64,000 nucleotides of DNA from IMG/VR virus record IMGVR_UViG_3300036790_000223. One strand, given 5' to 3'. A program made the translations under genes and the position numbers. The DNA is from a virus (lineage: Duplodnaviria > Heunggongvirae > Uroviricota > Caudoviricetes). Positions within the stretch are counted from its first letter, which is position 1; every line of letters begins with the position of its first letter. Of the stretch, positions 12,643-57,690 are shown one piece after another. The notes beneath the pieces are model-generated. The model was not told the origin of the DNA. It worked only from the letters and a program-made list of their open reading frames with translations, and made no database searches.

Positions 12643-12648
12643 GATCTC

Positions 12649-14662: not shown

Positions 14663-14722
14663 CTACCTTACCGCCCTGCGGCCTGCCAGCCAGCCGGGCG
14701 AGCAGCGGGTATTATTGCTGCT

Positions 14723-15259: not shown

Positions 15260-15293
15260 CCTCCTGGCCAAGGCAGGAAAGGGAGCGACGGGA

Positions 15294-15827: not shown

Positions 15828-15867
15828 GCCCGGATAGCTACGCCATGCTGTTCAATGTCTGCCTCTG

Positions 15868-30507: not shown

Positions 30508-30691
30508 TCGAATGCGCACGCATCTTTCTGTACGCAACCACGATCCTGACGTTCGCCCTGGCGCTGACGACGATGCCCCGGCCGCGTGCACTCCGCAAGA
30601 GAAGTCGGTAGGGCGCCGCAAGGCCCTGGGCCTGTTGTTCGGGGCGGCGGCTAGTACACTGCTCGCGTCAGACACGAGAGGATTGGATTGC

Positions 30692-31498: not shown

Positions 31499-31507
31499 AG
31501 AAAAGCG

Positions 31508-31553
31508 CCGCATAGCTTACCGCACTGCATCCCCTGCGCGGTAAGCTATGCGG
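31508..31553 (+). terminator. hairpin with 16-bp perfect arms after GH16 gene
   Basis: CCGCATAGCTTACCGC ... GCGGTAAGCTATGCGG. Confidence 0.45.
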
Positions 31554-31606
31554 GTAGGACCCCCGCCATAGGGGGAAGGAAGGGAATCAAGGGAAAGGAA
31601 GCAGGA

Positions 31607-32506: not shown

Positions 32507-32607
32507 GGCGCCACAAAGACCGCTCAGGGGGGTGGCTGGTGATCTGGAATAGGGGGGCGCCAGCCACCTCCATGAGCGTAGGATAAGGAAAAGGAAGGGA
32601 AATTGAG

Positions 32608-34029
32608 TTGAACGCCGCAGAGATCATCGCGGCCATGGGCGAGTTCGTCCCGCCAGGCCGCATCCAGCTGGACCCGTCGCAGCAGGCAGGCTTGCTGGCC
32701 TACACCGCTGACCTGTGTGATGCCAGCCCGAACGCCGAAAGTGAACGCCAGCGTTACCGCAGCGTGATCAGCCGCCAGATCCCCATGGACGAGGTCATGC
32801 TGCGGCACTGGCTGGCCGGTAAGACCATCCTGGTCACCGGGGGCACCGGCTGCATCGGTTCGGCGCTGGTGGGCCAGCTGACCCGCTATGGCGCCGCCCG
32901 GATCGTCAGCGTGAGCCGGGGGCTGACTAGCTGCTGGACCCGCTACAGCTCGGTGGATTACCTGAATGCCGACGTGCGTGACAGCAGCGGGTTGCTGCAG
33001 GTCTTCCGGAAGGTCCAGCCCGACATTGTGTTTCACCTGGCGGCTCAGCGTGAACCCGGTCTGGCCGAGCGTGAGGTGCACCGCACCGTGAGCACCAACG
33101 TGCTCGGTACGGCCAACGTGGCCGACCTGGCCGACTACTTTGGGGTGGCTGAGCTGATCCATGCCTCCACCGGCAAGGCGGTGCGCCCCTACTCCCGTGA
33201 GGTCTACACCGCGTCTAAGCGGGTAGCTGAGTGGGTCCTGGCGCAGACCGCAGCACGGTCGGAGGTGGCCATCGCCGCTGCCCGGTTCACCCACGTGGTA
33301 GACAACGCCGTGGTCTACCGCAACATCCAGCGCGCCGCTGCGGACAACACCACGCTGCGCATTCACGACCCGGGTATCGCCTTCTACGTGCAGTCCGCGC
33401 TGGAGAGCGCTCAGCTGCTGCTGCGGGCGGGGCTCGGGGCTATGTCCGGTGCGCTGAGCATCCTGGCCATCACCGACCTTGGCTGGCCGGTGAGCCTGCT
33501 GGATCTCACGCTCGGCACGCTGACCCACATGGGCACTGCGGCCCCGGTCTACTTCAGCGGGTACGACGCCGGGTATGAGGCGGTGCCGTTCCCGGGCCTG
33601 TATGACCCGCGCACCGCCGGAGACGTCAGTCCGCTGCTGAACTGCTTTGAGGCGCTGACCGTTGCTGAGTACGCCGGAGTGGACACCGCGCTGGCCCGCT
33701 ATGCAGCCTCATCAACGGAGGCAGGGGAGGCCGCCCTGCAGGAGCTGAGGGAGCTGTGTGCCGACACCGAAGACGGCCATGACCTGCGGGTCGGGCTCGA
33801 TATGCTGTTGTGGATAACCCTGGGGGCCACGCTGCGTGCAGCGCCGGAGCGGGCACTGCGGCGCGTGGAGGCCATCGCTGCACCGTTCAAGCAGACCATG
33901 AGCCGGGACTGCCGCCGGATTCTGTCGGCAGTGGAGTACTACGCGCAGAACGGAGAAGGGCGCGGTGCAGGGGCAGCAGGAGTTCACGTGGGCAGTTCCG
34001 TCGATGGAGCGGCTCGTCATCCCTACTGA
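32608..34029 (+). CDS. CapD-like NAD-dependent sugar epimerase/dehydratase (extended SDR)
   Basis: ILVTGGTGCIGSAL Rossmann motif; YTASK catalytic YxxxK; 473 aa. Confidence 0.75.
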   Translation: MNAAEIIAAMGEFVPPGRIQLDPSQQAGLLAYTADLCDASPNAESERQRYRSVISRQIPMDEVMLRHWLAGKTILVTGGTGCIGSALVGQLTRYGAARIVSVSRGLTSCWTRYSSVDYLNADVRDSSGLLQVFRKVQPDIVFHLAAQREPGLAEREVHRTVSTNVLGTANVADLADYFGVAELIHASTGKAVRPYSREVYTASKRVAEWVLAQTAARSEVAIAAARFTHVVDNAVVYRNIQRAAADNTTLRIHDPGIAFYVQSALESAQLLLRAGLGAMSGALSILAITDLGWPVSLLDLTLGTLTHMGTAAPVYFSGYDAGYEAVPFPGLYDPRTAGDVSPLLNCFEALTVAEYAGVDTALARYAASSTEAGEAALQELRELCADTEDGHDLRVGLDMLLWITLGATLRAAPERALRRVEAIAAPFKQTMSRDCRRILSAVEYYAQNGEGRGAGAAGVHVGSSVDGAARHPY

Positions 34030-40545: not shown

Positions 40546-41034
40546 ATGGCCCTCGGCCGCACCTACAGCTCGACAACCGCACTGGTGGCCTACACTGCTA
40601 CGTCGGCCACCCCGATCATGTGGGGGGCAACCACCTCCAGCTCCACCATGGACATCCAGGCCATCCGCGTGGCCTCCTACGCCGGTTCTGGGGTGTCTTA
40701 CCCGTCCAACGGCACCGTGCTGGTGCAGCTCTCGCGGGTGACCGGTACCGCTGCTGGTGGCACGGCACTGACCCCGAGCCCGCACAACCCAGGCGACATC
40801 GCGGCAGTGTCCACCTGGAAGGACGCCTCCACTGCTGCGGTCACCTCCCTGACTCAGGGTGTGACGCTCTGGGAGCAGGCACTGCCGTTCACCGCAGGCG
40901 CGAACTGGGCCGAGTGGGTGACCCCGGGTGCTGAGTGGCGCGTCGGTGCGACCGGTACCATCGCGGTCTACCTGACTGCCAGCTCCGCAGGCACGGCTAC
41001 CGACTTCGAGGCGTCCATCGTGTTTGTTGAGTAA
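40546..41034 (+). CDS. probable tail-associated protein
   Basis: T/S/A/G-rich 162 aa. Confidence 0.5.
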   Translation: MALGRTYSSTTALVAYTATSATPIMWGATTSSSTMDIQAIRVASYAGSGVSYPSNGTVLVQLSRVTGTAAGGTALTPSPHNPGDIAAVSTWKDASTAAVTSLTQGVTLWEQALPFTAGANWAEWVTPGAEWRVGATGTIAVYLTASSAGTATDFEASIVFVE

Positions 41035-41727
41035 GTGGCGTCGCTCACCGTCACCGCCACCAGCGTCGGACCCAACACCCACGCGGGGATGTACCTGCTG
41101 GTGCGGGTGTTCACCGGGGCTACCGAAAGCGGAGGGGCGACCGCCTCCGGTACCCCGGTGGGCTCGACCGGCACCGTCAGCCTGACCCCCAACGGCACCA
41201 ACTCGCTGGTCTTTGCGTCGGTGTGCAGCGGGCTGGTCGCCGGTTCGTTCTCCGCCGCATCCAACAACACCACCTACTTCAACGTTAACGACGGCACCAA
41301 CACCGCCACCGCTAACTGGGCACACTTCACCGGGGCCGTCACCTCCGGTACCCCGGTTGCGGTCGGGGCTACGCTGGCGGGGTCGTCCACCATCGCCAAC
41401 GGTGCCTACGAGATCCTGTCCACTACCGGGTCTACGCCTTCGCTGGCTACGTCGCCCACCGGGGCTCAGTCCCCGTCCACCAACACCGTCACCTCAGCGT
41501 CGTTCACGGCTGTGCCCGGGGCGGTGCTGTGCGTGGGCGTGGGGTGCACGTCCCCGTCAGGCACTGGGGTGTCGTCGTTCACGGTGAGCGACAGCCTGGG
41601 TGTGGTCTGGACGTCACGGGTGTTCCAGACCGGGTCACCCGATGCCGCCGTGGGGGTCTTCACCGCCACCGTTCCGCCACCCCCGCCAGCGCCGACAACC
41701 TTGTACCAGATGCGGTCCTTCGGGTAA
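41035..41727 (+). CDS. probable minor tail protein
   Basis: T/S/G-rich 230 aa. Confidence 0.5.
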   Translation: MASLTVTATSVGPNTHAGMYLLVRVFTGATESGGATASGTPVGSTGTVSLTPNGTNSLVFASVCSGLVAGSFSAASNNTTYFNVNDGTNTATANWAHFTGAVTSGTPVAVGATLAGSSTIANGAYEILSTTGSTPSLATSPTGAQSPSTNTVTSASFTAVPGAVLCVGVGCTSPSGTGVSSFTVSDSLGVVWTSRVFQTGSPDAAVGVFTATVPPPPPAPTTLYQMRSFG

Positions 41728-41741
41728 AAAGGAGTTCCACT

Positions 41742-42386
41742 TTGACCCTTCCGGCCTTCGGCATTCAGATGCAACAGCAACCTGACTACCCCCTCACGCT
41801 GGACGGGGACGTGGTGAATGCCGCTCCCGCTTTCCAGGCTCCTGACGGTTACGGAATCTTGTGTTACACCTGGAGCGCCTTCTACGACAACGGATTCTTG
41901 CCTATGTCGCCGGGTGAAGGGCAACTCCAGTTCACTGGAGGCGCTAACCCGCCACAGGACCGGGCAGAAGGCCCCTACCCTTCCAAGCTGACCCTCAACT
42001 TCTGGGGACCCACCCCAGGTGACTTCAGCTACGGTTCACTTCGCGTGTGGCTCTACTTCGTCCCCGCTCAGGCGCTGGAAACGACGCCCTCTGTGGCTAA
42101 CTTCACTGCCGGGGCAACTAACGCCATCACTTTCGACTCCGACTCAGCTACCAACTCAGCGGCAGTCCACACCCTCGCAGACGGAAGCAACCTGACCAGC
42201 GTCACTCCGCTTCCCACGCTCAGCGTGGTCGAGACGCTGGCGTCGGGCGTCACCTTCACGGACAACGAAGACGGTACTGCCACGTTGGCCGGAGACATGC
42301 CAGCGGCGGGGAACTACTCGCTTACCATCCAGTCAATCAACAGCGTGGGCGAGGTGGATCAGGCGCTCACGCTCACCATTACCTGA
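41742..42386 (+). CDS. probable minor tail protein
   Basis: TTG after AAAAGGAG RBS; 214 aa. Confidence 0.5.
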   Translation: MTLPAFGIQMQQQPDYPLTLDGDVVNAAPAFQAPDGYGILCYTWSAFYDNGFLPMSPGEGQLQFTGGANPPQDRAEGPYPSKLTLNFWGPTPGDFSYGSLRVWLYFVPAQALETTPSVANFTAGATNAITFDSDSATNSAAVHTLADGSNLTSVTPLPTLSVVETLASGVTFTDNEDGTATLAGDMPAAGNYSLTIQSINSVGEVDQALTLTIT

Positions 42387-42433
42387 CTGACTCCCCTCTT
42401 CCGGGAGGTCCCCGGTTACAGGAGGCAGGTTAC

Positions 42434-45400
42434 GTGACCGTCTCCTCCAACGGCACCCCGACTGTCATCGCCGGTATCACTGGCTCAGCAAGCATCAGCG
42501 TCACTGGCCAGTGGCCGACCAACCCGACTGCCCCGGCCGCTGGAGACCTGCTGGTGGCGGTCATCGGCGGGTACGGCACCACTAGCTGCACCGTCCCTAC
42601 AGCTCCGTCTGGGTGGACGCTGTGGAACTGGTGCTACGGCATCACCGCCGGGACCGGCGCCAGGTCCCTGACCACCGTTACCGCCTACTACATCAAGAAC
42701 TCCACCGGGTCCGACACGGTCCCGACGTTTAGCGCCACAACGGCGGGCACTGCAGCCGACAACGGCCTGCGCTGCGTCATCTACGACCTGTCCGACTCCG
42801 GCGGTAGCACCCCGGTTCTGTGGACGGACGGCATCACCGCACTGCCGGTTGCCGGGACTGCGACCGTGTTCACTGGTCCGGTCCCCGCTGGTTCGCTCGG
42901 GATCGCCTCGGCCACGATCTCCCAGGGCACCACTGCAGCCACGAACACGTGGACCACGCCGTCCGGCTTCACCGCAGCCACCGGTAACGAAACCGCGTCG
43001 CTGCGGTCCCAGTTCGGCTCGTTCTATACCTCTTCCGCACCGACCACCGGCAACGGCATGTCTGTGGCCATCGTGCACTCCCGGACTTCCACCGAGCAGC
43101 CCGCGATTGCGCTGGTGGCGGCACCGCCGTCCTCTTCGGGGGTCAGGCGGTTTCAGGCGTCGCCGTACCAGGCACCCACCACCGCCGCTGCAGTGCTCAC
43201 CAGCCATACGTTCGCCGCACAGCCCGACGAGCTGATCGTCGCCTCGGCAGGCGTAGGCAATGGCGTTGGCACCGCGCCGACCAGCCTGGTTGCCGTCGAC
43301 AACACCAGCGCCACCCTGACGGCGCTGGTCACCGAGCTAGCTGGCGCCGACTTCGGCCTGGCGGGGGTCTTCGCCGAAGACGCAGGTGCCACCCCGGCTG
43401 TGACGTCGGTCACGGTTACCGCCGCCCCGTCCACGGTGCACGACCCGTGCCTGGTGGTATACCGGTTCGCCGGGGCGGCGGTAACTGCAGACCAGACCGG
43501 CACCACCGCCCACGGCACCACTGCCACTTTGTCGATTACCCCGGCCCAGACCGGCTCGGTGATCGTCGGTGCGTCCGGTGACGACGGCTCCACGGCACTG
43601 ACCCCGAACGCCAGCAGCCTCGGCTACACCTCCACCACTGGTGGCGCCGGGGACCGCATCAACGCCTACATGGGCCTGGCCTACACCACGGCCTCCAGTG
43701 CGGTCACGGTCGGCTGGTCTACCGCTCCTACCGCGCTCGGCAATGCAGCGGCGGAGATCATCCCCGCTCCTCCCGCAGCTAACCCGGCACCGCTGTACCC
43801 ATTGCGGAGGCCGGTCCGGGCGCAGGCTTTGCCCCGGCGGGGCGGCCGGGTCTACCGGAGCGGTCTGCCTAACCGGATTCTCACCAACAACTTTGAGGGT
43901 GGGTCCTCCGGCACCACCATCACCACCACTAACTCCAACGGGATTAGTGGCGCTGCGTTCGACGTGGTGTCCATCGGCACCAGCGCCACCCTGGCGTTCG
44001 ACAACACTGAGGCTGCGCACGGCCTGCTGTCGATGAAGGTGGCCACGGGCGGCACCTCCACCACGTCCCTGGCTGAGTGGACCTTCTCCGAAGGTCCCCA
44101 GCTGACGATCTACTTCCGGCTGTACCTGTTCCTGTCCGCCACACCGACAGCGGCCATCAGCCCGTTCATGGTCCGCTCCGGCGCGTCTGTGGCAGCCTCG
44201 CTGCTGCTGACCACGCCGGGCACCCTCCAGCTGCGCGACGGCACCAACACCACCCAGGTGACCTTCACCACCCACCCGCCAACTGGGTCCTGGTACCGGA
44301 TCGAGGGTTACGTCACTGGTGCCAGTGGCACTGGTGGCGCGATCTCGGCCAGCCTGTACTCGCCGCTGGACTCGCTGACCCCGGTTGAGACCCACACCGT
44401 CACCGGGATCAACACCACCGGGGCGATCAGCGCCTACTGGTTCGGCCAGGCCAACACCGTCGCCAGCAGTGGTCCGTTCTGGATCGACGACATCGGGATC
44501 TCCCCGGTCGGGTTCCTCGGCCCGGCGGCGTTCCCGCCCGTCACCTCCGGGCCACCGCTGACCGCACTGGACGGTCCGGTCCGCGCACCTGTCCCGGCCC
44601 GCCGTAAGGGTGGCATCGCACGGGCCATGAGCCCGCTGGCGATCTCCTACGCCGGGCCACCGCTGACCGCACTGGCCAGCCCGGTCCAGGGACGCCGCAG
44701 GCCCACCCCACGCGGCCGGGTCTATGGCATCAGCCGCCCCGCAGTCACCGTCGCGCCACCGACCCCAGCGCCGCTGTACCCACTGAGCAAGCCGGTCCGT
44801 GCGGTCATCCCAGCCCGCACCCGGGGTGGCCGGGTCTACCAGACGACAGCCCCTACGGTCCCCGCCATCCAGACCGGCGCAGCGCCGTGGTACCTGTTCC
44901 CCACGTTCCCGCAGTGGACGGTGCTGGAGTCGTCTACCGGGCTGCTGCCTGCCGTAGCCATCATGAACAACGGCAACGGCGACGTTGTCTGGGATTCGAC
45001 CTGGGGTGCTCTCGCTACTGCCCTGCATGCCAAGGGCATCAAGCTCCTCGGTTACGTCTACACGCAGTTCGGCACCCGGCCCGAGGGTGACGTTGAGACC
45101 GCCATCGGCAACTACCTCCAGCCTGGGTTCACCCCTGGCCTGGACACCGTTGACGGTATCTTCTTTGACCAGTTCAACAACCTGACCGGCAGCGAGTCCT
45201 ACTACAACGACCTCTGCATCTCGGTCAAGAGCCAGTTCGAGGCGGTCGGCTCCGGCGCGAACAGCCCTCTGATCTGGGGCAACCCGGGCACGGCTATCGC
45301 TGCGTCCTACCTGACGCTGCCCATCGACGTGTTTGTCACGTTCGAGGGTCCGATCACCGCCTACCAGAACTTCACCCCGTTCAACGTCAACGCCTCGGGG

Positions 45401-47068
45401 TTCATCTCTGGCGCTGGGCAATGGCCCCGGCAGCGGTTCGCGCACATCGTCTTCGAGGTCGTTCGCGACCAGGTGGACGGGGTCGTAGACCGGGCCTGGC
45501 TCAACTACGCCGGTTGGGTCTACACCACCAACGGACCCGGCGACACCAACCCGTACGCCTTCATCCCCGGCAACGACTACCTGAACGACCTGGTAGCCCG
45601 GGGAGCCAGCGAGCCTCCGCTGCTGCCGCAGGGCATCCCGCCCTGGATCTACCCGCAGACCTCACCGGTCAGCGCACCGAAGCAGCGCCCCGCCCGGGGT
45701 GGGCGCGTCTACAGCCGCAGCGGTTCTCACGGTGGACTCGGCCCGGCCCTCACCGCATTGCGCGGCCCGGTTGCAGCTGCCCGGCGCAAGCTGCCACCCC
45801 GGGGCAGGGTCTACTCGGCCCGGGGCACGTTCTCCGGCAGCGGACCCGTGCTCAAGGCGCTGGCCAAGCCGCTGGCTGCCGCCCTGCGCATCCTGCCGCC
45901 GCAGGGGCGGGCACTGTCTCGCCGGGGTTTGCTCAGCGGCACTGGAGCGGTTCTCAAGGCGCTAAGTGCCCCGGTCCGTGCCCGGCCTAAGCTGCCACCC
46001 CGTGGGCAGGTAACCTCCCGGGCGGGCATCCCGTTCACCGGGTTCGGCCCGCCGCTCACCCTGCTGCGCTCCCCGGTCAAAGCAGCGCCGAAGCTCCCAC
46101 CACGGGGCAGGTCCGCAGCGAACACCGGCACGTTCGGTGGTCAGGGTGCAGCGGTCTACCCGATCCACCAGCCGGTCTCGGTTCACCATCCGCTGCCGCC
46201 ACGTGGACGCGTCTACAGCAACCCCGGTGGCCCGGTTGTTGCTCCGCCGCCACCGGGGTTCGGTCCTGCGCTCACGCCGCTGCACATGCCGGTGCGTGCC
46301 AGCTGGCCTAAGCAGGTCAGTGGTGGCACTGGCCATGGACTGCGCGGTACCCGCAATGGCGTTGGCCCGGCGCTCTACCCGCTGCACCTGCCGGTCAAGG
46401 CGGCACCGAAGCTACCACCCCGGGGCCGGGTCTACCTGCTGCCGGTGCGGGCGGTGCAGAGCCCAGCGGCACCTCCGCTGCATGTTCCAGTCCGGGCGGC
46501 CTGGCCTCAGCGCATCAGCGGTGGCACTGCTCACGGCTTGCGAGGCTTCCGTGGCGGCGCAGGACCAGCACTGGTTCCGCTGCGCACCCCGGTCAAGGCT
46601 GTTCCTAAGCTGCCGCCACGTGGCCGGATCTTCCAGTTCCTGACTCGGGCGTTCCAGTCACCACCGGTTCCTCCGCTGCATGCTCCAGTGCGGGCAGCAC
46701 CGCACAAGGCACCTGCCCGGGGCCGGATCATCACCAGCGCCGTGCGGCTGGTCCCGTTCATTCCCACGTCGGGACCGGCACTCACCCCGCTGCGGATGCC
46801 AGTCCGTGCCCGGCCGAAGCTCCCGCCGCGAGGCTGGTGCTACACCACCCCGCCGTACGTGGCACCGGGTCCGCCATCGGGTCACGCCACCGGCTGGAGC
46901 GTGGGCACCCCGCAGTCTGCCTGGATCACTGGCCTGCTGCAGGGTGCCTGGGAAAGCGGCCTGCCCGCTAGCCCCATTGCCTGGAACCCGAGCGGCCCGC
47001 AGGCCGCATGGCAGAGTGGCCCGCTGACTTCTGCCTGGGAAAACGTGTCGCCAATGACCGGAGGGTGA
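42434..47068 (+). CDS. giant tail fibre / receptor-binding protein (1544 aa) with central glycosidase-like domain and C-terminal Arg-rich modular repeats
   Basis: Long T/S/G/A-rich N-part; central W/aromatic-rich domain (IDVFVTFEG, GIFFDQF); ~20 copies of P-V-R-A-x-P-K-L-P-P-R-G-R-V-Y. Confidence 0.8.
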   Translation: MTVSSNGTPTVIAGITGSASISVTGQWPTNPTAPAAGDLLVAVIGGYGTTSCTVPTAPSGWTLWNWCYGITAGTGARSLTTVTAYYIKNSTGSDTVPTFSATTAGTAADNGLRCVIYDLSDSGGSTPVLWTDGITALPVAGTATVFTGPVPAGSLGIASATISQGTTAATNTWTTPSGFTAATGNETASLRSQFGSFYTSSAPTTGNGMSVAIVHSRTSTEQPAIALVAAPPSSSGVRRFQASPYQAPTTAAAVLTSHTFAAQPDELIVASAGVGNGVGTAPTSLVAVDNTSATLTALVTELAGADFGLAGVFAEDAGATPAVTSVTVTAAPSTVHDPCLVVYRFAGAAVTADQTGTTAHGTTATLSITPAQTGSVIVGASGDDGSTALTPNASSLGYTSTTGGAGDRINAYMGLAYTTASSAVTVGWSTAPTALGNAAAEIIPAPPAANPAPLYPLRRPVRAQALPRRGGRVYRSGLPNRILTNNFEGGSSGTTITTTNSNGISGAAFDVVSIGTSATLAFDNTEAAHGLLSMKVATGGTSTTSLAEWTFSEGPQLTIYFRLYLFLSATPTAAISPFMVRSGASVAASLLLTTPGTLQLRDGTNTTQVTFTTHPPTGSWYRIEGYVTGASGTGGAISASLYSPLDSLTPVETHTVTGINTTGAISAYWFGQANTVASSGPFWIDDIGISPVGFLGPAAFPPVTSGPPLTALDGPVRAPVPARRKGGIARAMSPLAISYAGPPLTALASPVQGRRRPTPRGRVYGISRPAVTVAPPTPAPLYPLSKPVRAVIPARTRGGRVYQTTAPTVPAIQTGAAPWYLFPTFPQWTVLESSTGLLPAVAIMNNGNGDVVWDSTWGALATALHAKGIKLLGYVYTQFGTRPEGDVETAIGNYLQPGFTPGLDTVDGIFFDQFNNLTGSESYYNDLCISVKSQFEAVGSGANSPLIWGNPGTAIAASYLTLPIDVFVTFEGPITAYQNFTPFNVNASGFISGAGQWPRQRFAHIVFEVVRDQVDGVVDRAWLNYAGWVYTTNGPGDTNPYAFIPGNDYLNDLVARGASEPPLLPQGIPPWIYPQTSPVSAPKQRPARGGRVYSRSGSHGGLGPALTALRGPVAAARRKLPPRGRVYSARGTFSGSGPVLKALAKPLAAALRILPPQGRALSRRGLLSGTGAVLKALSAPVRARPKLPPRGQVTSRAGIPFTGFGPPLTLLRSPVKAAPKLPPRGRSAANTGTFGGQGAAVYPIHQPVSVHHPLPPRGRVYSNPGGPVVAPPPPGFGPALTPLHMPVRASWPKQVSGGTGHGLRGTRNGVGPALYPLHLPVKAAPKLPPRGRVYLLPVRAVQSPAAPPLHVPVRAAWPQRISGGTAHGLRGFRGGAGPALVPLRTPVKAVPKLPPRGRIFQFLTRAFQSPPVPPLHAPVRAAPHKAPARGRIITSAVRLVPFIPTSGPALTPLRMPVRARPKLPPRGWCYTTPPYVAPGPPSGHATGWSVGTPQSAWITGLLQGAWESGLPASPIAWNPSGPQAAWQSGPLTSAWENVSPMTGG
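45650..46900 (+). repeat. intragenic array of ~26-34-aa modules (GPALTxLxxPVRAxPKLPPRGRVY)
   Basis: At least 14 consecutive modules here; further copies near 43790, 44560-44830. Confidence 0.7.
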
Positions 47069-47069: not shown

Positions 47070-47387
47070 ATGCCTGCAGACCTGACCCTGCCGTCGCTGA
47101 CCACCCAGCTGGTCCAGGTCCCCATCCAGGTCACCTTTGAAGGTGCCCCGTATGACCCCACCGCTGACGTGGTGGCCTTCGCCTTCGTGAACGGCAACGC
47201 CTACCCGGCGACCTGGTACACCGGCAGCTGGCAGACCACAGTCCAGGGCAACTACCTCGCTCAGTGCCTGATCGGGCCGGTGGGCGGGGTGGTCGCCCTG
47301 GCTCCGGCGACCTACACCGTCTGGGTCAAGATCACCGACGACCCCGAGGTGCCCGTCCTGTCCACCGGAAGCCTGCAGATCACATGA
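47070..47387 (+). CDS. hypothetical tail-associated protein
   Basis: 105-aa ORF right after fibre gene. Confidence 0.5.
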   Translation: MPADLTLPSLTTQLVQVPIQVTFEGAPYDPTADVVAFAFVNGNAYPATWYTGSWQTTVQGNYLAQCLIGPVGGVVALAPATYTVWVKITDDPEVPVLSTGSLQIT

Positions 47388-47398: not shown

Positions 47399-48040
47399 AT
47401 GGCGCTGCCGGTTGACCTGACCACCATCGAGGTGACGGGCTCCTTTGACGACGCCTCCGGCGCAGCGCAATCTGGTGCGGTGCTGTTCACCCCGACCACC
47501 CCGCTGGTCGACTCCACGGGCCAGGTCGTCGTGACGCAGACCGCCATGACCCGAGCCGTAACCAGCGGCACCATGGCCGCGATCACCCTGGCCACCACCG
47601 ACAACGCCAACCTGTTCCCGCAGAGCGCCGGATCGAGCTGGGCCTACACCGTCACCATTGCGGTGCCTGGTGCGATGGCTACGTTTGACACCTACCTGCC
47701 GTCTGGCTACGGCTCCACGGTGGACTTGACCCAGCTGATCCCGGCGGCTACCCCACCTGCGCTGAGCGGCCCCTACGTCCAGTCCATCAACGGCATGAGC
47801 GGCACGGTGGTGCTCGCTGGCACCATCCTCGCGTCGGGGACGGCTACCTTGATCAGCCCGGGCACCGTCATCATCACCGACATTGCCATCCCTGCCAGCG
47901 CGATCCCCTACGCCATCGCCAGCACGGTGCACGGCACGCAGGGCATCTTGTCCGCTACGGCCTCGGCTGGTTCGATCACGGTCACCTCGTCAAACTCCGG
48001 CGACACCTCCGCTATCTACTGGGCGGCTTTCGCCGCCTGA
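47399..48040 (+). CDS. hypothetical tail-associated protein
   Basis: A/T/S/G-rich 213 aa. Confidence 0.5.
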   Translation: MALPVDLTTIEVTGSFDDASGAAQSGAVLFTPTTPLVDSTGQVVVTQTAMTRAVTSGTMAAITLATTDNANLFPQSAGSSWAYTVTIAVPGAMATFDTYLPSGYGSTVDLTQLIPAATPPALSGPYVQSINGMSGTVVLAGTILASGTATLISPGTVIITDIAIPASAIPYAIASTVHGTQGILSATASAGSITVTSSNSGDTSAIYWAAFAA

Positions 48041-48462: not shown

Positions 48463-49074
48463 TCACTCGCCCAGCTCCTTGAGGATGCGCTCGGCCAGTG
48501 CGACCGACTCCGACCGGACCTTCTCCAGCATCCGGTCGCTGCCACCACCCCAGTTGCGCAGGTAGGTGGTGGTGTAGCGGCCATCGGTGCAGCCCAGTGC
48601 CGCAGTCACCAGCCCGGCCGTGGACTCCGCGATCAGCTCCTCCTGCGGAGGCGTCCGGCCCATGAACGCCGCTGTCATTGCGAACATCATGGTGTCTTGC
48701 GGGGTGCGCTCGATGGCACGGATGGCGTGTGCCACCTCGTGACACATGGTCCGGAAGGTGGACGCCGGGCTCATGTTCTGGACGTGGATCTTGCGCCCGT
48801 TCGTTTCCAGCTCGATGGTTTCCTTGTTGAGGGGGGCTTCGGTCTCCCCCAGCACCATGGGCTTGTCCGGGTAGCTGGGCAGAGTGGGCATCGGGTGCAA
48901 CAGCACCGCGAAGCCCAGCCGCCCGGCCAGTGCCTGCAGTGCAGGCAGCAGGTGCGCAGCCACCGGGGTGGGGTCGTCCTTTGCCCCGTCAGCGTGATCT
49001 TCCGGCGTCTCGCTGAGGGTGCTGGCGATGGCACACATCCCCTCGTGGGCACGGGTTAGTTCCTGGGTGTCCAT
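48463..49074 (-). CDS. HExxH metallopeptidase-like protein (ImmA/ArdC-C-like)
   Basis: MCHEVAHAI motif; 203 aa. Confidence 0.55.
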   Translation of the reverse strand: MDTQELTRAHEGMCAIASTLSETPEDHADGAKDDPTPVAAHLLPALQALAGRLGFAVLLHPMPTLPSYPDKPMVLGETEAPLNKETIELETNGRKIHVQNMSPASTFRTMCHEVAHAIRAIERTPQDTMMFAMTAAFMGRTPPQEELIAESTAGLVTAALGCTDGRYTTTYLRNWGGGSDRMLEKVRSESVALAERILKELGE

Positions 49075-49157
49075 TCTTCTCCCTTTTTCCTGTTTCCCTA
49101 CGATTGGGCTGAGCAGCCCCGGCCGTCCCCAGGTGAACTGGGGACGACGGCGGCGGC

Positions 49158-50198
49158 TCAGACCGTGGCGACCTCCTGCGCCAGCTTGAACGCACGAGCC
49201 TTCTGGGCCTCAGGCGTGAGCAGGGTGCGGTTGAGGTAGGTCTCCTCGCTGCGGTAGGCCCGCACGTGGTCCAGGTACTCACCCGCGCACTGCACCAGCC
49301 CGTAGGCGGTGCCCTTCACGTGAGCGCCCGTGGGCGAGGCGAACAGCGCCTTCAGCTTGCCGCGAGCCTCGCTGACGTTGTTCATCACGCGCTCGCTGGC
49401 CATGCCAACTGGCGGCTCGGGCAGGAACTGGTCGATGAACAACTGCCGCTGCTTCGCGGTCACCTTGATCTTCATCAGTGTCTCCATCAGCTCCAGGTAG
49501 TGCGCGAACTCCTGGCGCGTCGCGGTCACCGCAGCCTTCGCGTCTTCGACCCGGTCACGCCAGTCGCCCTTGTGGACGAACCGGTAGGTCGCTCCGGTGC
49601 GGTCGCCTTCCAGCTCCGCAGCGCGGAAGGTGTTGGCGCAGACGATCCGCACGGCGGTGGCGCGAGCGGCGCACGCCGCGTAGCCATCGTGACGGTTGGT
49701 CAGGCCCAGGTAGGGCATCGTGTAGGTGCCCTTGTCACCGGGGATGGTAACCGGCTCATCGAGGCGGGCCAGTGCCCAGACCGCCCGGCCGCCTTCGAGG
49801 CTTCCGGCGGTCTCGTAACGGACACCCTTCTCCTGGTCCAGGATGGCCTCCATGATCTCGCCCATCTCGGTGTTGGTGATCAGCGAGTAGGTCCCCTGGT
49901 CCTTGTGGTACAGGGTGGTGTTGTTGTCGCTGCGGACGATGCGCCCCCAGTTGTCGTCGGGCTCGAACTGGCCCTCGATCACATGGCCGTCGCTGTCGCG
50001 CACCTTGCGGTAGCTGGCCTCGTACTCCGGGTCCCAGTCCAGGCCAGCGAGAACGCGGGCCTCTTCCCATCCACCTTCGGGATAGTCGTCCAGGACCTTG
50101 CCTTCGCGGTGCCAGGGCACCTCGCGGACGCTGAACATGTCGTCAACGTTGGCTGGCATGGGTGATGTGCCTTCCTTTCCTGTTCCTATTGGGCTCAT
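49158..50198 (-). CDS. DUF932 phage/plasmid-related protein
   Basis: Length and conserved blocks (TNRHDGYAA..., GLVQCAGEYLDH) typical of the DUF932/TIGR03299 family. Confidence 0.65.
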   Translation of the reverse strand: MSPIGTGKEGTSPMPANVDDMFSVREVPWHREGKVLDDYPEGGWEEARVLAGLDWDPEYEASYRKVRDSDGHVIEGQFEPDDNWGRIVRSDNNTTLYHKDQGTYSLITNTEMGEIMEAILDQEKGVRYETAGSLEGGRAVWALARLDEPVTIPGDKGTYTMPYLGLTNRHDGYAACAARATAVRIVCANTFRAAELEGDRTGATYRFVHKGDWRDRVEDAKAAVTATRQEFAHYLELMETLMKIKVTAKQRQLFIDQFLPEPPVGMASERVMNNVSEARGKLKALFASPTGAHVKGTAYGLVQCAGEYLDHVRAYRSEETYLNRTLLTPEAQKARAFKLAQEVATV

Positions 50199-52523: not shown

Positions 52524-52661
52524 ATGGCGGAAAAGGTAAAGGAAACGTGCACCCGGTGCGAGGGGATGGGCATTCTCCAGAAGCCCGGTAGCAAGAAGAT
52601 TGTCCCGTGCCCTAAGTGCAGTGGCATGGGTTACCGGTGGGTTCCCCGTCGTGGGTTGTGA
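52524..52661 (+). CDS. DnaJ-type CxxCxGxG zinc-finger minigene (paralog 3)
   Basis: MAEKVKETCTRCEGMGILQKPGSKKIVPCPKCSGMGYRWV; below ORF-track cutoff. Confidence 0.45.
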   Translation: MAEKVKETCTRCEGMGILQKPGSKKIVPCPKCSGMGYRWVPRRGL

Positions 52662-53721
52662 CTGGCGTCTGCCGGATAACCGGCGTGAGGCATTCCAGCG
52701 GGCATACTCATTCATGCTCCGGTACAGAAATGCGCCTGGCTGTGTCTACTTCGCCTTGCCTTACCTGGCGCACGAGCTGGACTGGGACACCGAGGAGCGG
52801 TACTGGGCAGCCTGGCTGAACGCCAACACCCAGAACCCAGTCACCACGATGCTGCTGATGGAGGCCGGAAGCGTTCCCGGCTACCACGAGCGCGTGGCCC
52901 GCTACCAGGAGCGCAACTGGAAAACCCTGCAGTGGGACTCCGACAGAAAGTGGCAGAAGAGCAGCGAGGTGTTTGGCCGGGCACTGCGCGGATACGCCGA
53001 ACTCATGGAGCAGGCAGGCAGCCAGAGCGCCTACTGGGCCGGTGTGGCTGACTGGGACGATGCCTGGCGCAGGATGACCGCCTTGCCCTACATGGGACGG
53101 CTGAGTGCCTGGAGCGGGCTGGAGTACATGCGGCTGCTCGGTGATCAGCCCATCCCCGACGCGGAGACCTTGCTGCTGGGTGACGCATCCGGGTCCCGCA
53201 GCCACCGTAACGGGCTGGCCCTGGTGACGGGGCACGACGACCTGCTGCAGGACCGGCAGCTGAACCCCGGTGGCTACACCACCAAGTGGGAGCCAGACTT
53301 CCTCACCGAGATGGAGACCGAGGGTTACTGGCTGCTAGCGCAGGCCCGGGAGCGCAATCCTGGCGAGCCAGACGTCGGGTACCTGACCCTGGAGTCGTGC
53401 TTGTGCAACTGGAAGAGCTGGCACAAGCGCAACCGCCGCTACCCGAACGTGTACGCCGACATGCTGCATGAGCGCATCCGCTGGGCTGAGGCACGGCATG
53501 GACTGCGGTTCGGTGTGCTGTGGGACGCCCGCAAGGCCGCCTTGCCGGATTACCTGCGGCTGGAAGACACCACCGGTGACCCGGGGCTGTGTGGCGTGAA
53601 GCAGAACCACTACAACGAGACCGGCGAGGTCATCTTGCTGGGGCACGAACCGGAATGGAAAGACATGTGGTCGGCGTTCGATACCGGCGTTGCCGACCGG
53701 AGATACGGGGTGTGCAGGTGA
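52651..53721 (+). CDS. large conserved-looking protein of unknown function; candidate base-modifying transferase (aGPT-pyrophosphorylase-like role is inference)
   Basis: ~357 aa, Trp/Tyr-rich, no P-loop or common cofactor motif recognised; sits between ParB-like gene and PLP enzyme; start may be TTG 52600 or ATG 52714. Confidence 0.5.
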   Translation: MGCDWRLPDNRREAFQRAYSFMLRYRNAPGCVYFALPYLAHELDWDTEERYWAAWLNANTQNPVTTMLLMEAGSVPGYHERVARYQERNWKTLQWDSDRKWQKSSEVFGRALRGYAELMEQAGSQSAYWAGVADWDDAWRRMTALPYMGRLSAWSGLEYMRLLGDQPIPDAETLLLGDASGSRSHRNGLALVTGHDDLLQDRQLNPGGYTTKWEPDFLTEMETEGYWLLAQARERNPGEPDVGYLTLESCLCNWKSWHKRNRRYPNVYADMLHERIRWAEARHGLRFGVLWDARKAALPDYLRLEDTTGDPGLCGVKQNHYNETGEVILLGHEPEWKDMWSAFDTGVADRRYGVCR

Positions 53722-53822
53722 AGCTGAGGGATGCGGAGTTCCGCCAGAGCCTGGCGATGGGTGCGGTCGTGGTGGCTGCGCTGGCCTTGCTGATTGTGTT
53801 GCTGGCTAAGGGGATCAAGTGA
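53712..53822 (+). CDS. possible 36-aa transmembrane peptide
   Basis: VQVKLRDAEFRQSLAMGAVVVAALALLIVLLAKGIK; GTGA-coupled to next gene. Confidence 0.25.
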   Translation: MQVKLRDAEFRQSLAMGAVVVAALALLIVLLAKGIK

Positions 53823-54280
53823 CTGACGAACGCTTCTACGCTGACCCGGTGGCTAACCGGCTAGCCCTGCACAAACGGTTCAACCCGGCAGAGCTGCGTG
53901 GCGGACATGGGCAGTGGATTGCTGGTTTGGGGTCCCTGGGTGACAAGCTGAACGACGCCGGGTACAACATGGCAGCCGGTGCCGTGGGCAGGGCAGCGCA
54001 GCATGCCAGCGCCGGGGACATGGAAGCAGCGCACCGGTCGCTGGATCACGCCCGTGATGCCGTGCGCGGCAAGCACCAGGAGATGGCCCGCAGTGCCCCC
54101 AGGGCTGGTGAGGTGCGCCCGGATGCTTACGCCCGTGATGATGCGCTGCGCTCCATCGAACAAGCACGCAGCAGCCAGCCTGACCCGGCCACCAGCCGCA
54201 CCACCTTCGGCAGTAACTTCCGTTACGGTGCCGCGATCTCACCCCAGAGCGATGTGGAGCCGAGGCGCAACACCGGATGA
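53819..54280 (+). CDS. hypothetical protein (Ala/Arg-rich, 153 aa)
   Basis: Overlap-coupled within cluster. Confidence 0.5.
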   Translation: MTDERFYADPVANRLALHKRFNPAELRGGHGQWIAGLGSLGDKLNDAGYNMAAGAVGRAAQHASAGDMEAAHRSLDHARDAVRGKHQEMARSAPRAGEVRPDAYARDDALRSIEQARSSQPDPATSRTTFGSNFRYGAAISPQSDVEPRRNTG

Positions 54281-55125
54281 GCCTGACCCCGGTTGAGCGC
54301 CACGATGGCCTCTGGCTCAAGCTGGAGGAGCGTCACCGGCTGCCCAGCGGGGTCAACGGCTCCAAGCTGCGTGCCTGTCAGTACCTGATCGGGGCAGCGA
54401 AGGCCGCCGGTAAGACCCGGGTGATCTCAGCTGCGTCGGTGCTGAGCCCGCAGAACGCCATGGCCGCGAACGTAGCAGCGGACCTGGGCATGGAGTGCAC
54501 CGTCATCCTCGGTGGCACTAAGCCATCCACTGCCGGGCGCCACCGCGCGGTGCAGATCGCCAGCGACTACGGTGCTGACTTCCGGTATATCCCGGTTGGC
54601 TACAACCCGGCCCTCCAGCGCGCCGCCCGCGCCGAAGCCACCGATCCGGCCGCTTACCACCTGCAGTACGGCATCACCACCCCGCCCGATGCCAGCGCAG
54701 TGGAGTTGCGCGCGTTCCATAACGTAGGCGCAGACCAGGTGGCCAACCTGCCTGCTGAGGTGAAGACCCTGGTGATCCCGTTCGGATCCGGCAACACTGC
54801 CGCTGGAGTACTCCTGGGGCTCAGCCAGCAGCCCCCTGAGGCCCTGGAGCGGGTCATCCTCATGGGTATCGGGCCAGACCGTCAAGAATGGCTCTGGAGC
54901 CGTCTGGCCGTCCTGGACGCTAAGGTTCCGGTGCCGGTGACCCACATCGCCTTGCACCCGGACTTTGCCACCTACGGGGACAAGATGAAGGCGTCCATCG
55001 GCCCCATCACGATGCACCCGACCTACGAGGGCAAGATCGTCCGGTGGGCAGATGAGAACCGTCCCCCCTGGTGGACCAGGAGGGACGGTTCAACGGCGAT
55101 GTGGATCGTTGGCGGGCCGATCTAG
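54277..55125 (+). CDS. PLP-dependent enzyme of the ACC-deaminase/D-cysteine-desulfhydrase (Trp-synthase-beta fold) family
   Basis: NGSKLRA matches the PLP-lysine N-K-x-R-K box; Gly-rich FGSGNTAAG loop; 282 aa. Confidence 0.65.
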   Translation: MSLTPVERHDGLWLKLEERHRLPSGVNGSKLRACQYLIGAAKAAGKTRVISAASVLSPQNAMAANVAADLGMECTVILGGTKPSTAGRHRAVQIASDYGADFRYIPVGYNPALQRAARAEATDPAAYHLQYGITTPPDASAVELRAFHNVGADQVANLPAEVKTLVIPFGSGNTAAGVLLGLSQQPPEALERVILMGIGPDRQEWLWSRLAVLDAKVPVPVTHIALHPDFATYGDKMKASIGPITMHPTYEGKIVRWADENRPPWWTRRDGSTAMWIVGGPI

Positions 55126-55643
55126 GCGGCGACCTCCCACCGCAGCTGGTAAGCGGAGGTGACCAGCAGGTGCGCCTCAGCAGCGGCGCCGCACTCAATG
55201 CGGCATTCGCCGCACTCAATGCGGCATTCGCCGCAGTCGATGACCGCATGTAGCCATGCAATTAGGCCACTGCCGGGCCAGAACCATTCCTGGCCAATGC
55301 GGTAGGGCGCGAACATCTTCTGCAGGCGCCGCTCCTGCAACTCCTCGCCGGGGACAGAGAGGATCATCTTCACCCTCAGCTCACCCCCACGCCGCCGCGT
55401 GTTGGCCGAGGTGCCGATCTTCAGATGTGCGCCCCCATCCCAGGCCACGTAAACTCGTTGACCGCTGGCTGCAGTGCGGGTGCGAACGATGGGCGCGACG
55501 CGGGGGACTAGCCTCCGCGCTTCTGTTGTAGTACCATTGTGCACAGAAGTAGTCACCGTTTCTGGTCCTCTTTCCGTTACGGTTTTTACAGATGAAGCTT
55601 GGGCAGCCACCCAAGCTTCATCGCTTTTCCCTGAGAATACCAC
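55122..55643 (-). CDS. T5orf172/GIY-YIG-like domain protein (homing-endonuclease-like), antisense insertion in cluster
   Basis: VYVAWDGGAHLKIGTSANTRRRGGEL ... RIGQEWF core; C-terminal ECGECRI repeats. Confidence 0.65.
   Translation of the reverse strand: MVFSGKSDEAWVAAQASSVKTVTERGPETVTTSVHNGTTTEARRLVPRVAPIVRTRTAASGQRVYVAWDGGAHLKIGTSANTRRRGGELRVKMILSVPGEELQERRLQKMFAPYRIGQEWFWPGSGLIAWLHAVIDCGECRIECGECRIECGAAAEAHLLVTSAYQLRWEVAA
55189..55242. repeat. 21-bp tandem repeat x2.6 (CCGCACTCAATGCGGCATTCG)
   Basis: Two perfect copies plus diverged partial; in-frame within T5orf172 gene. Confidence 0.8.
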
Positions 55644-55864
55644 CAGACGCGCCCACGATCAAGCCTGCGTGCGATGGGTACCGCCCACCCCCGTCAGGCC
55701 CTCGCGGGCCGTCACGGGCCAGCTCAGCGCCAGGTGTAGCACGCTGTAGCTTGCCCAAGCGCTAAGCAAACGGCAGCGTGGCGCAGGTTGGCGCAAATTG
55801 ATGCAGGCTGAGCTGTCGGCGCCGATGGAAAGGGCGTTAAGCCCGGCGTTTAGGCTAGGCGGTC

Positions 55865-56452
55865 ATGGACCTCATCTACATCACCGGAGCCCCGGCCACT
55901 GGCAAGTCAACCCTGATGGCGCAGATTACTAAGGGATGCGAGCGCCAGCCCCGCAGCGGTCCGCCTGCTCACGATGTACTGACCACCCACGGCGGGATCG
56001 TTGGCGCTGAGCTAGGGGTCCGACGTGAGCGTTACAGCGGGACCGACGCCCTGCCACTGAACATCCAGCCTCGCGCGCTCACCTGGCTAGCTCAGATGCC
56101 CTACCGCGTCGTGCTGGGTGAAGGCCAGCGCCTGGGCAACTACGGCTTTCTGTCCGAAGCCATGAACACTGGCTACCGCGTCACCTTGATCCACCTGGTT
56201 GCTGATGAGGTCACGCTCGATGCCCGCCGGGCGGAGCGGGGCAGTGCTCAAGATCCCCGCTGGATGAAAGGCGCGAGCACCCAAGCAGCCAACCTGGCCC
56301 GCCAGTGCAGCGGGGACGGCCGGATCACGGTGGTGGAGCTGGACGCGGCACTGCCGCTGGAGACACTGCTGGAGCAGCTGAACGTCTACCTGCCTGTGCT
56401 GGCGAAACTGGGGGATCATGAAACTTACGGCAGCAGCTCCGGTGCGGCATAA
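55865..56452 (+). CDS. small P-loop kinase (candidate DNA 5-hmU/nucleotide kinase)
   Basis: ITGAPATGKSTL Walker A; 195 aa, size of nucleoside/nucleotide kinases. Confidence 0.65.
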   Translation: MDLIYITGAPATGKSTLMAQITKGCERQPRSGPPAHDVLTTHGGIVGAELGVRRERYSGTDALPLNIQPRALTWLAQMPYRVVLGEGQRLGNYGFLSEAMNTGYRVTLIHLVADEVTLDARRAERGSAQDPRWMKGASTQAANLARQCSGDGRITVVELDAALPLETLLEQLNVYLPVLAKLGDHETYGSSSGAA

Positions 56453-56609
56453 GTGCTGGATTTGCGATGGCACCGGCAGCCGTCAAGCCTATGTCGAAGG
56501 CAACAACAAGTTCCGGATCATCCAGTGTGCGGCCTGCGTCGGGAAGGGGTGGCGCGTCTACCATGACTGGTGCGATGTGGGAATACCGCATCCGGGCAGC
56601 ACGAGCTGA
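56418..56609 (+). CDS. DnaJ-type CxxCxGxG zinc-finger minigene (paralog 4)
   Basis: CWICDGTGS ... CAACVGKGW. Confidence 0.45.
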   Translation: MKLTAAAPVRHKCWICDGTGSRQAYVEGNNKFRIIQCAACVGKGWRVYHDWCDVGIPHPGSTS

Positions 56610-57690
56610 AGCTCAGTTCCGCAACCCGGCCTGCAAGGATGAAGATCACGTAGCGTGCGGCTGCATGTGGGGCAAGAACGTCCCGCAGACCTTCCGTGGT
56701 ATCACCATCGGCCCGCAGGCCGTCAAGCTGCTGAAGCCCAGCGGCAAGCCGCTGGCGATCTACCTGCCTGGCTACATGGCACGGCACACCAGTGACGAAG
56801 CCACCTACGCCATCCTCGACGCGATGGGGCGTACCGGTAAGACCGGCAACCGGGGAGCAGCCGGAGCCACCCCGCAGCTACCCCGAGGCAAGCAGCTGCG
56901 CAGCTACGCGGTACCTATCCACTCCAACATCATGGGTGCGTTCGAGCCGAGCGGGCTGTACAAGACCTGCCGCCTGACCGTCTACACCGCAGCCCACATG
57001 GAAGACTGGAAGGCCCTGGAGCCTGCCCTGCAGGACGTCGCAGCCGCCCTGCAGGAGCACGTGCCGGATCGTTACGCTAAGCAGGCCGAGCAGGCTGCCC
57101 GTACGCTACCGGAGTGGGTGATCCCCGGTACCCCGTTCACCACCGTGACGGTGAACCACTCCTACCCCACCGGAGTCCACACCGACAAAGGTGACCTTGA
57201 TGCTGGGTTCAGCGCTATCTTCGCCGCCCGGCGTGGTCACTACACCGGAGGCGAGCTGTGCTTCCCGCAATACGGGGTGGCGGTAGACCTGCAAGACGGT
57301 GACCTGATCCTGATGGACGCCCACGACTACCACGGCAACACCGCCATGACCTGCGCGTGTGGTAACGACATCCGCAAGCCGTGCAAAGTCTGCGGAGCTG
57401 GCCGGGTCTCGGTGGTCACGTACTTCCGCACTAAGATGCCTGAATGTGGCAGTGCCGAGGCTGAAGTAGCTAAGGCCGCTGCCCGGGCAGAGCGCCGGAT
57501 GCTCACCGATGCACAGCTGCTCGCAGAGCTGAACGGAGCCCCGCTCACGGTGAACGCTATTCAGCGCACCCTGAAGCTAGGTGACCTGCGTGCCGCGCGG
57601 GTGCTGCAGCTGGCAGCGGAGACCGGCCGTGAGGTAGCACCTGAAGAACTAGCCAAGGCCCACGCCATCTGGGCTAAGAACGCGGGGTAG
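56563..57690 (+). CDS. 2OG-Fe(II) dioxygenase (candidate TET/JBP-like thymine hydroxylase) with Zn-ribbon and C-terminal winged-helix-like tail
   Basis: HTD (HxD) ... DAHDYHGN distal His ... RVSVVTYFR; CACGN..CKVCG; start could be a few codons later. Confidence 0.6.
   Translation: MTGAMWEYRIRAARAEAQFRNPACKDEDHVACGCMWGKNVPQTFRGITIGPQAVKLLKPSGKPLAIYLPGYMARHTSDEATYAILDAMGRTGKTGNRGAAGATPQLPRGKQLRSYAVPIHSNIMGAFEPSGLYKTCRLTVYTAAHMEDWKALEPALQDVAAALQEHVPDRYAKQAEQAARTLPEWVIPGTPFTTVTVNHSYPTGVHTDKGDLDAGFSAIFAARRGHYTGGELCFPQYGVAVDLQDGDLILMDAHDYHGNTAMTCACGNDIRKPCKVCGAGRVSVVTYFRTKMPECGSAEAEVAKAAARAERRMLTDAQLLAELNGAPLTVNAIQRTLKLGDLRAARVLQLAAETGREVAPEELAKAHAIWAKNAG

Follow-up and report, generated by a model that had tools for sequence, protein, structure and literature searches.

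A multidomain fibre-like gene in an uncultivated phage

The virus record IMGVR_UViG_3300036790_000223 (Caudoviricetes) was studied over a stretch of 64,000 nucleotides with a G+C content of ~65%, which is referred to below as the window. It contains a gene for a 1544-residue multidomain, fibre-like protein. The open reading frame (ORF) of this protein runs on the + strand from a GTG start codon at position 42434 to the end of its stop codon at 47068. It is preceded by a ribosome-binding site, AGGAGG (42420-42425, +), which was read off the sequence and lies 8 nucleotides (nt) 5' of the start. The ORF is genuine, with a strong ribosome-binding site and a single coding frame that is kept throughout. 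In the DNA of the repeat array that is described below, frame 0 is free of stop codons and each of the other two frames contains three. A wrong-frame artefact of high-GC DNA was excluded by the zero in-frame stops of the array and by the fact that its motif is kept in 105 proteins. The identical protein is also present on a 116.8-kb JGI contig. The gene had no match in the 50,697 phage records of INPHARED, either by megablast or by tblastn, and a scan of viral contigs with the whole protein as the query was negative.

Arg/Pro modules form a periodic array devoid of acidic residues

With a hidden Markov model (HMM) built from the modules themselves, 16 copies of an Arg/Pro module of ~34 amino acids (aa) were found in the protein, each with an i-Evalue between 5e-11 and 9e-18. 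All are encoded on the + strand. Module 1 (43775-43873, aa 448-480; i-Evalue 5e-11) lies at a domain junction. Modules 2-4 (44540-44854, aa 703-807; individually aa 703-735, 738-770 and 775-807) link a jelly-roll-like domain to the hydrolase-like domain in the centre of the protein, and modules 2 and 3 are joined by a 24-nt exact repeat. The other twelve follow each other in tandem (45629-46861, aa 1066-1476) at a spacing of 32-39 aa. A sequence-only reading of this DNA, made beforehand by a model, had already reported the ORF, a glycosidase-like domain and the repeats, including further copies upstream of the array. All of these were borne out, but its counts of about 20 modules, at least 14 of them in tandem, were too high.

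The consensus of the module is xGxGPxLxPLxxPVRAxPKLPPRGRVYxxxGxx. Among the 411 residues of the tandem array 60 are Lys or Arg, 75 are Pro and none is Asp or Glu, which corresponds to a net charge of +60. At a lag of 34 residues the self-identity of the array was 0.239, compared with a maximum of 0.171 (mean 0.139, standard deviation 0.007) in 500 composition-preserving shuffles. The periodicity is not an effect of composition, because the observed value exceeds every one of these shuffles, and the self-alignment thus reveals a repeat structure beyond low complexity. At lag 66 there is another peak (0.223), which stems from a double repeat around aa 1274-1406. In this part of the array (46253-46651) modules of the PKLPPRGRVY type alternate with modules of the WPxxxSGGTxHGLRG type, giving a super-repeat of 66 residues.

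When a profile of the 16 modules was compared with 1.84 billion representative sequences, only 92 proteins were retrieved (E <= 1e-3), with 2-33 modules each. The periodic basic module is real and, as had been proposed, unusual. The C-terminal region has 39 nameless metagenomic relatives without Pfam domains. A pool of 782 modules from 105 proteins showed a spacing of 33-38 aa, with Pro, Gly, Val and Leu strongly conserved at particular positions a fixed distance apart (Pro11 in 95%, Gly22 in 93% and Val12 in 80% of the modules). In the pooled arrays Asp and Glu make up 0.6% of the residues and Lys and Arg 13.5%, and 91% of the basic residues are Arg. Typically, ~266 residues precede the first module of a member and ~77 follow the last. 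Relevant work on Arg-rich repeats in Streptomyces phage fibres was not found in the literature.

The Gly-X-Y periodicity of collagen-like phage fibres is not present in the module consensus. Known cell-wall-binding repeats (choline-binding, CW_7, LysM, SH3b and PG_binding) gave no Pfam match in a scan of the whole protein at E <= 1, and a likeness to solved fibre repeats was not found. Structure prediction with AlphaFold2 (AF2) was carried out on the segment aa 808-1544, with 38 sequences, and on P0100, a homolog that is a natural fusion (see below), with a 25-sequence alignment. In both models the array and the C-terminal tip had predicted local distance difference test (pLDDT) values of 30-47 and no secondary structure; the domains on either side were modelled with moderate to high confidence. 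This prediction fits an extended or disordered chain, and it fits equally an obligate oligomer that is beyond the reach of monomer prediction.

At the nucleotide level the modules share a mean identity of 49% and a maximum of 68%, and no exact repeat within the gene is longer than the 24 nt mentioned above. Tandem Repeats Finder (TRF) detected no tandem repeat of module size, just two short arrays of 12-nt period. A recent tandem expansion, or an array prone to recombination, was rejected on account of these identities and the TRF result. Thus, whereas the glycoside hydrolase barrel and the unusual module of the earlier interpretation hold, its suggestion of a recombination-prone variable array is not supported. 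The copy number does vary among homologs, from 2 to 33. The modules are old duplications that are maintained by selection on the protein.

A spherulin-4/GH135-type barrel in the centre of the protein

The domain between module 4 and the tandem array (44855-45628, aa 808-1065, +) was identified by Pfam, by a profile search against the PDB and by AF2 in combination with Foldseek as a (beta/alpha) barrel of the spherulin-4 or Sph3-like kind, which belongs to glycoside hydrolase family 135 (GH135). Pfam model Spherulin4 (PF12138) matched aa 818-1045 with E = 5.1e-23 and 82.3 bits (cut-off 30.2), and was the sole Pfam model matched by the whole protein at E <= 1. A single-sequence search of the PDB with the central domain yielded chance matches only; with a profile of 24 homologs the Sph3 structures 5D6T and 5C5G were found at ~1e-27. 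AF2 modelled the barrel with pLDDT values of 83-97 and with strands and helices in alternation. When this model was compared with the PDB by Foldseek, Sph3 (5c5g/5d6t) came first (E = 3e-11, target-normalised template modelling score 0.62), and the runner-up TIM barrel followed far behind at E = 3e-3. The TIM-barrel glycoside hydrolase that the sequence-only reading had placed here, with GH135 and spherulin-4 among the families it named, is confirmed by these searches.

Family GH135 was founded on Sph3 of Aspergillus, a retaining endo-alpha-1,4-N-acetylgalactosaminidase that takes part in the biosynthesis of galactosaminogalactan (PMC10485009; PMC12054363), and the putative catalytic residues of Sph3 are Asp166, Glu167 and Glu222 (PMC10485009). 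In the alignment with Sph3, Asp166, Asn202 and Glu222 correspond to Asp912 (in GIFFD), Asn950 (in NPG) and Glu971 (in TFE), which are invariant in the family alignment of the 24 homologs. The motifs GIFFDQFNN (aa 908) and VTFEG (aa 968) include the equivalents of the catalytic Asp (Asp912, 45167-45169, +) and Glu (Glu971, 45344-45346, +). The closest relatives of the domain are nameless metagenomic proteins of 52-53% identity, one of which is encoded in the same type of phage cassette. The relatives that bear a name, Streptomyces 'spherulation-specific family 4' proteins, are ~33-35% identical. No relevant work on GH135 phage depolymerases was found in the literature. Together, sequence and model support well that the domain is a new phage-borne member of the known family GH135. 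As the barrel is a spherulin-4/GH135 glycoside hydrolase, a depolymerase role is a reasonable prediction.

Variable domains at the N-terminus

The N-terminal 447 aa matched no family in NCBIfam, Pfam or PHROGs. They comprise the S/T/A/G-rich domain N1 (42434-43129, aa 1-232, +), which has no Pfam or PDB match and whose sole homolog is the N-terminus of the protein P0003 (E = 8e-46), and the region N2 (43130-43774, aa 233-447, +), for which no homolog was detected. Beyond module 1 lies a jelly-roll-like domain, resembling a lectin, carbohydrate-binding module (CBM) or lyase (43874-44539, aa 481-702, +). Its profile weakly matched the Cip1 jelly-roll 3ZYP (E = 9e-4). Homologs of this domain are found in relatives, as three copies in P0002 and as the N-terminal domain of P0080 and P0088. 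Where the present protein has Arg/Pro modules, P0002 (1685 aa, from an ENA contig) has the junction motif PGxTWxxxFxHPQ, so that the junction repeats may represent an interchangeable class of elements. Among the module proteins the N-terminal globular parts vary widely and are interchangeable; the heads of other members can be GH5, apiosidase-like, LamG, He_PIG, beta-helix or, once more, Spherulin4 domains.

A Trp-repeat tip is followed by a conserved partner protein

Behind the array the protein ends in a tip (46862-47065, aa 1477-1544, +) with six Trp residues at spacings of 9, 9, 11, 9 and 9. The next gene (47070-47387, +) encodes a conserved protein of 105 aa. Its ATG lies 1 nt past the TGA of the fibre gene and a GGAGGG is present in the last codons of the latter, and the two genes are probably translationally coupled. 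The 105-aa protein is present in 54 IMG/VR loci and in 2 Streptomyces genomes (42-63% identity). It is 42-51% identical to the products of the genes directly 3' of the homologous fibres P0102 and P0003, and in P0100 the small protein is fused to the fibre C-terminus, right behind the Trp tip of that protein. Tip and small protein recur across 56 loci, in most of which the upstream protein ends with 9-spaced Trp residues.

Of the 45 proteins that are encoded upstream of the small gene, 24 contain a basic, acid-poor stretch of 150 aa or more. A second type of shaft, made of acid-free, Ala/Thr/Arg-rich and Pro-poor repeats, was observed in the same position in L059 (8259-9998; Streptomyces sp. 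SDr-06), L009 and L031. This shaft is ~540 aa long with at most 2 acidic residues, and it is followed by a 9-residue Trp tip and then by the same small protein.

AF2 predicted a beta-sandwich for the 105-aa protein (pLDDT 60-79). It had no match in cultured phages by tblastn and none in the PDB by a profile search. The model of P0100 (N-domain and small domain) gave only weak, generic beta-sandwich or high root-mean-square-deviation matches in BFVD and the PDB. The pairwise identity of the small proteins tracks that of the large terminase TerL (Spearman 0.71, 118 non-independent pairs), which suggests that the small protein is inherited with the virion core rather than by cassette swapping.

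Genomic context of the fibre gene in the window and in related loci

The window further encodes a RecE-like exonuclease, a replication initiator, DnaB, ParB, a family 2 glycosyltransferase (GT2), a GH16-like protein and a sugar epimerase/dehydratase. TerL (59479-61023) is at most 42% identical to the terminase of any cultured phage. Judged by its genes, the genome in the window is that of a phage. The fibre gene is located in an appendage-like cassette ~12 kb upstream of TerL, among non-head genes and not within an evident tail module.

The adjoining genes encode small, acid-poor, S/T/A/G-rich proteins, which matched nothing in NCBIfam, Pfam or PHROGs. A 162-aa S/T/A-rich protein (40546-41034, +) without a family match is co-conserved with the fibre cassette: tblastn matches were found in 13 related loci, directly or a few kb upstream of the fibre gene. 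In the window, the ORF that immediately precedes the fibre gene (41529-42386, +) ends in an Ig/He_PIG-looking sequence (…GNYSLTIQSINSVGEVDQALTLTIT); its real start probably lies inside the ORF, near 41769, and it has no family match. Two genes downstream of the fibre gene a 213-aa protein is encoded (47399-48040, +), of which the N-terminal ~120 aa match, by tblastn, the N-terminus of a 1101-aa collagen-like fibre protein of Actinomycetia phage DSL-LC01 (36%, E = 4e-6).

In related loci the homologous fibre genes sit between terminase and portal, or between portal and major capsid protein (MCP). In locus L002 the order is terminase, family 1 glycosyltransferase (GT1), methyltransferase, fibre, small protein, a 429-aa protein and a portal fusion. 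In L004 it is portal, family 17 glycosyltransferase (GT17), GT1/methyltransferase, fibre, small protein and a minor tail protein according to PHROGs (E = 8e-29), followed by a weakly tailspike- or pre-neck-appendage-like protein and a protease/MCP-like protein. In the Streptomyces prophage L059 a CBM-like protein, the Trp-tip protein and the small protein precede a TerS-like protein, TerL, portal and MCP. A cassette of GT1, GT17 and CmcI-type methyltransferase genes was observed just 5' of the fibre gene in three of three relatives (L001 3433-5437; L004 5616-9087; L063 3402-5867), which leads one to ask whether the fibre is glycosylated. In L001 the fibre cassette is directly followed (11235-16349) by an unusually large, 1704-aa fusion of portal and NUDIX with a faint match to 2',5' RNA ligase.

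Polysaccharide genes also occur in the + strand block of the fibre cassette in the window (28256-34029, +), and their products could alter the host surface or attach sugars to virion proteins. They encode GT2 (28256-29437, +), the GH16-like protein (30380-31498, +), with a 357-aa protein encoded between these two, an SPFH/Band7 protein (31607-32506, +) and the Polysacc_synt_2 epimerase/dehydratase (32608-34029, +). Right after the fibre cassette the - strand (48463-50198) carries genes for a DUF932 protein (E = 6e-46) and a zincin-like metallopeptidase (MPTase-PolyVal, weak match). Pairs of this kind are found more typically in conjugative elements than in phages. Upstream of the terminase (52600-57690, +) lie genes matching PHROGs to which no function is assigned: phrog_3271, phrog_3650 (PLP enzyme-like) and phrog_24024. 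The last (56467-57690) has a weak queuine tRNA-ribosyltransferase-like match, and this cluster is possibly a DNA-modification module.

A possible virion appendage with glycan-directed heads on a repeat shaft

Because relatives of the fibre gene lie beside minor tail and head genes, and because the N-terminus of the 213-aa protein encoded two genes downstream resembles that of a fibre, the protein is likely to be a virion appendage. The location of the family among structural genes makes this the most likely reading, short of proof. The narrower designation as a tail fibre, which had been given from the sequence alone, is plausible but unproven: the relatives do adjoin minor tail and head genes, whereas the gene lies 12 kb from TerL, matches no tail-fibre family and has no homolog in cultured phages. 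As a whole, we tentatively favour, with a confidence that falls a little short of even, an appendage of the virion, either a side or a tail fibre, which belongs to an uncultivated, probably Streptomyces-type actinobacterial phage and in which heads that recognise or cut glycans are carried on an unusual repeat shaft. The globular domains (N1/N2, the jelly-roll lectin-like domain and the GH135 barrel) are strung along the 34-aa Arg/Pro modules, and those at the N-terminus would be the exchangeable, host-facing part. The GH135 domain would cleave an exopolysaccharide on the host surface that is rich in alpha-1,4-linked N-acetylgalactosamine (GalNAc) and similar to Pel or galactosaminogalactan. 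The modules would form an extended, polyproline-rich and polycationic shaft, which keeps the heads apart and adheres to anionic polymers of the wall, for instance teichoic acids. The conserved end would consist of the Trp tip and the small protein, and its role would be to attach the fibre to the particle or to assist in fibre assembly. The tether role of the shaft, the particle-proximal or assembly role of the C-terminus and the GalNAc-rich substrate are inferred from composition, conservation and synteny. Binding of the array to anionic wall polymers would be compatible with its net charge, and the array may function as a polycationic shaft or as an adhesin.

A number of findings weigh against this reading. 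The positional conservation within the modules, as seen in the aligned sequences, exceeds what pure electrostatic stickiness needs. The position of Sph3 Glu167 is occupied by Gln913 in the present protein and by Val in the consensus of the alignment of mostly Streptomyces homologs. The neighbours of the chromosomal GH135 homologs of Streptomyces are unrelated genes without an obvious exopolysaccharide cluster. A host exopolysaccharide cluster around these homologs was dismissed for this reason, and they point to no host substrate. Fifteen marker loci without a long ORF, or without a module or Trp-tip ORF, ending beside the marker were checked, and in 14 of them no module or Trp-tip fibre gene lies at a distance of up to 10 kb from the small protein. 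The ~11 kb between fibre gene and terminase contain a reverse-strand block. Apart from Spherulin4, the protein matched no known tail-fibre, tailspike, anchor or chaperone family in PHROGs, Pfam or NCBIfam, and its presence in the virion is a prediction.

The main rival, which we consider rather unlikely, attributes the conservation to folding. The modules would then be the repeat unit of an obligate oligomeric, probably trimeric, folded shaft, comparable to the triple beta-spiral or triple beta-helix of other viral fibres, in which the array is architectural and its charge secondary. The fixed spacing of 33-38 aa, the near-invariant Pro11 and Gly22 and the conserved hydrophobic positions argue for such a shaft, and so do the bead-like occurrence of modules at every inter-domain junction and the beta-like alternation in the Pro-poor Ala/Thr/Arg repeats that relatives have in the same position. 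The failure of AF2 on the array is in keeping with it, as monomer prediction typically fails on shafts of this kind. However, the array consists for 18% of Pro and contains no acidic residue, a trimer would carry a charge of +180 without counter-charges, and no similarity to solved fibre repeats was found.

A second rival, improbable in our judgement, is a soluble depolymerase that is not part of the virion but is freed at lysis, and whose C-terminal basic repeats target the host wall or matrix in the manner of the wall-binding repeats of endolysins. The enzyme-first, repeats-last architecture would suit such a protein, as would the lack of a match to virion families and the position of the gene in a + strand block with GT2, GH16-like and epimerase/dehydratase genes, away from the terminase. 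Against this, homologs are found amid portal, minor tail and head genes, the flanking genes resemble those for fibre proteins, no known wall-binding repeat family was matched, and a signal peptide is not evident in the N-terminal sequence, as judged by eye only. Least probable of all is that the modules are docking sites (RxxPxxP and PxxPxR patterns) for the small protein, a phage glycosyltransferase or a host surface protein, which would make the array a multivalent scaffold or a substrate for modification: the conserved core P-V-R-A-R-P-x-L-P-P-R-G-R, the glycosyltransferase and methyltransferase genes just 5' of the fibre gene in relatives and the coupled gene of the small partner speak for it, but coupling predicts a stoichiometry of ~1:1 instead of 16:1, the small protein also occurs in loci without module arrays and no SH3- or WW-type partner domain was detected.

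Within the favoured reading of a virion appendage, a bolder proposal can be made, which is doubtful at present. Array, 9-residue Trp tip and co-translated 105-aa protein might constitute an undescribed appendage of reversed polarity, which is anchored or assembled by its conserved C-terminus and projects exchangeable enzyme and lectin heads on a long, polyproline-rich and polycationic tether, and this tether would adhere to the anionic wall or matrix of actinobacteria or pass through it. If true, the appendage would show a structurally new way of building fibre shafts, and the phage glycosyltransferases encoded next to it would possibly modify it.

Array, tip and partner protein make up an undescribed phage fibre architecture, which has no counterpart in Pfam, PHROGs, NCBIfam or cultured phages and is rarely met in sequence space. 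They define a rare and wholly uncharacterised protein family, which occurs in large actinophages of soil and in prophages of Streptomyces. The host range of phages is decided by their fibres and depolymerases, and such proteins also serve as anti-biofilm enzymes. With a GH135 domain on a phage protein, the reach of phage depolymerases would come to include GalNAc-rich matrices of the Pel or galactosaminogalactan kind. A polycationic tether, or else a new shaft fold, would if true represent a new building principle for viral fibres, and the family gives a starting point in the search for the receptors that uncultivated actinophages use.

Comparison with known systems

The central domain resembles Sph3 (PDB 5C5G/5D6T) in its match to PF12138, in its predicted (beta/alpha) barrel and in the conserved equivalents of Asp166, Asn202 and Glu222. 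It differs in that the identity is ~20%, Glu167 is replaced by Gln and the domain lies inside a 1544-aa phage protein, whereas Sph3 is a membrane-anchored fungal enzyme.

Phage depolymerase fibres and tailspikes, such as the K1F endosialidase and the capsule depolymerases of Klebsiella phages, likewise combine glycan-degrading with carbohydrate-binding-like domains, and the alternative enzyme heads of the relatives (beta-helix, GH5 and apiosidase-like) add to this likeness. Unlike these proteins, the 1544-aa protein has no beta-helix, no recognisable N-terminal anchor and no intramolecular chaperone domain; its enzyme is placed in the middle of the chain and its conserved end is C-terminal.

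In composition the array is analogous to plant extensins and to Pro/Arg-rich antimicrobial peptides, which are Pro-rich basic chains. It shares with them acid-poor repeats rich in Pro and Arg, which by analogy are expected to be extended and to bind polyanions, and the glycosyltransferase genes near the fibre genes of relatives may be seen as a further likeness to extensin-type rods. The analogy is one of composition only: there is no homology, the array differs in motif and period and occurs in a virus, and modification and binding are predictions.

Pairs of a fibre and a downstream assembly protein or adhesin are known from Stf/Tfa of lambda, the fibre-Tfa pairs of Mu and P2, and gp37/gp38 of T2. 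The small protein has no sequence or profile likeness to the Tfa or gp38 families, it evolves together with TerL and is not exchanged with host range, and its gene is sometimes found without an adjoining fibre gene. What it has in common with these pairs is the arrangement, in which a long fibre gene is followed by an adjacent and probably coupled small gene, whose product likely acts on the C-terminal tip of the fibre and in one homolog is naturally fused to it.

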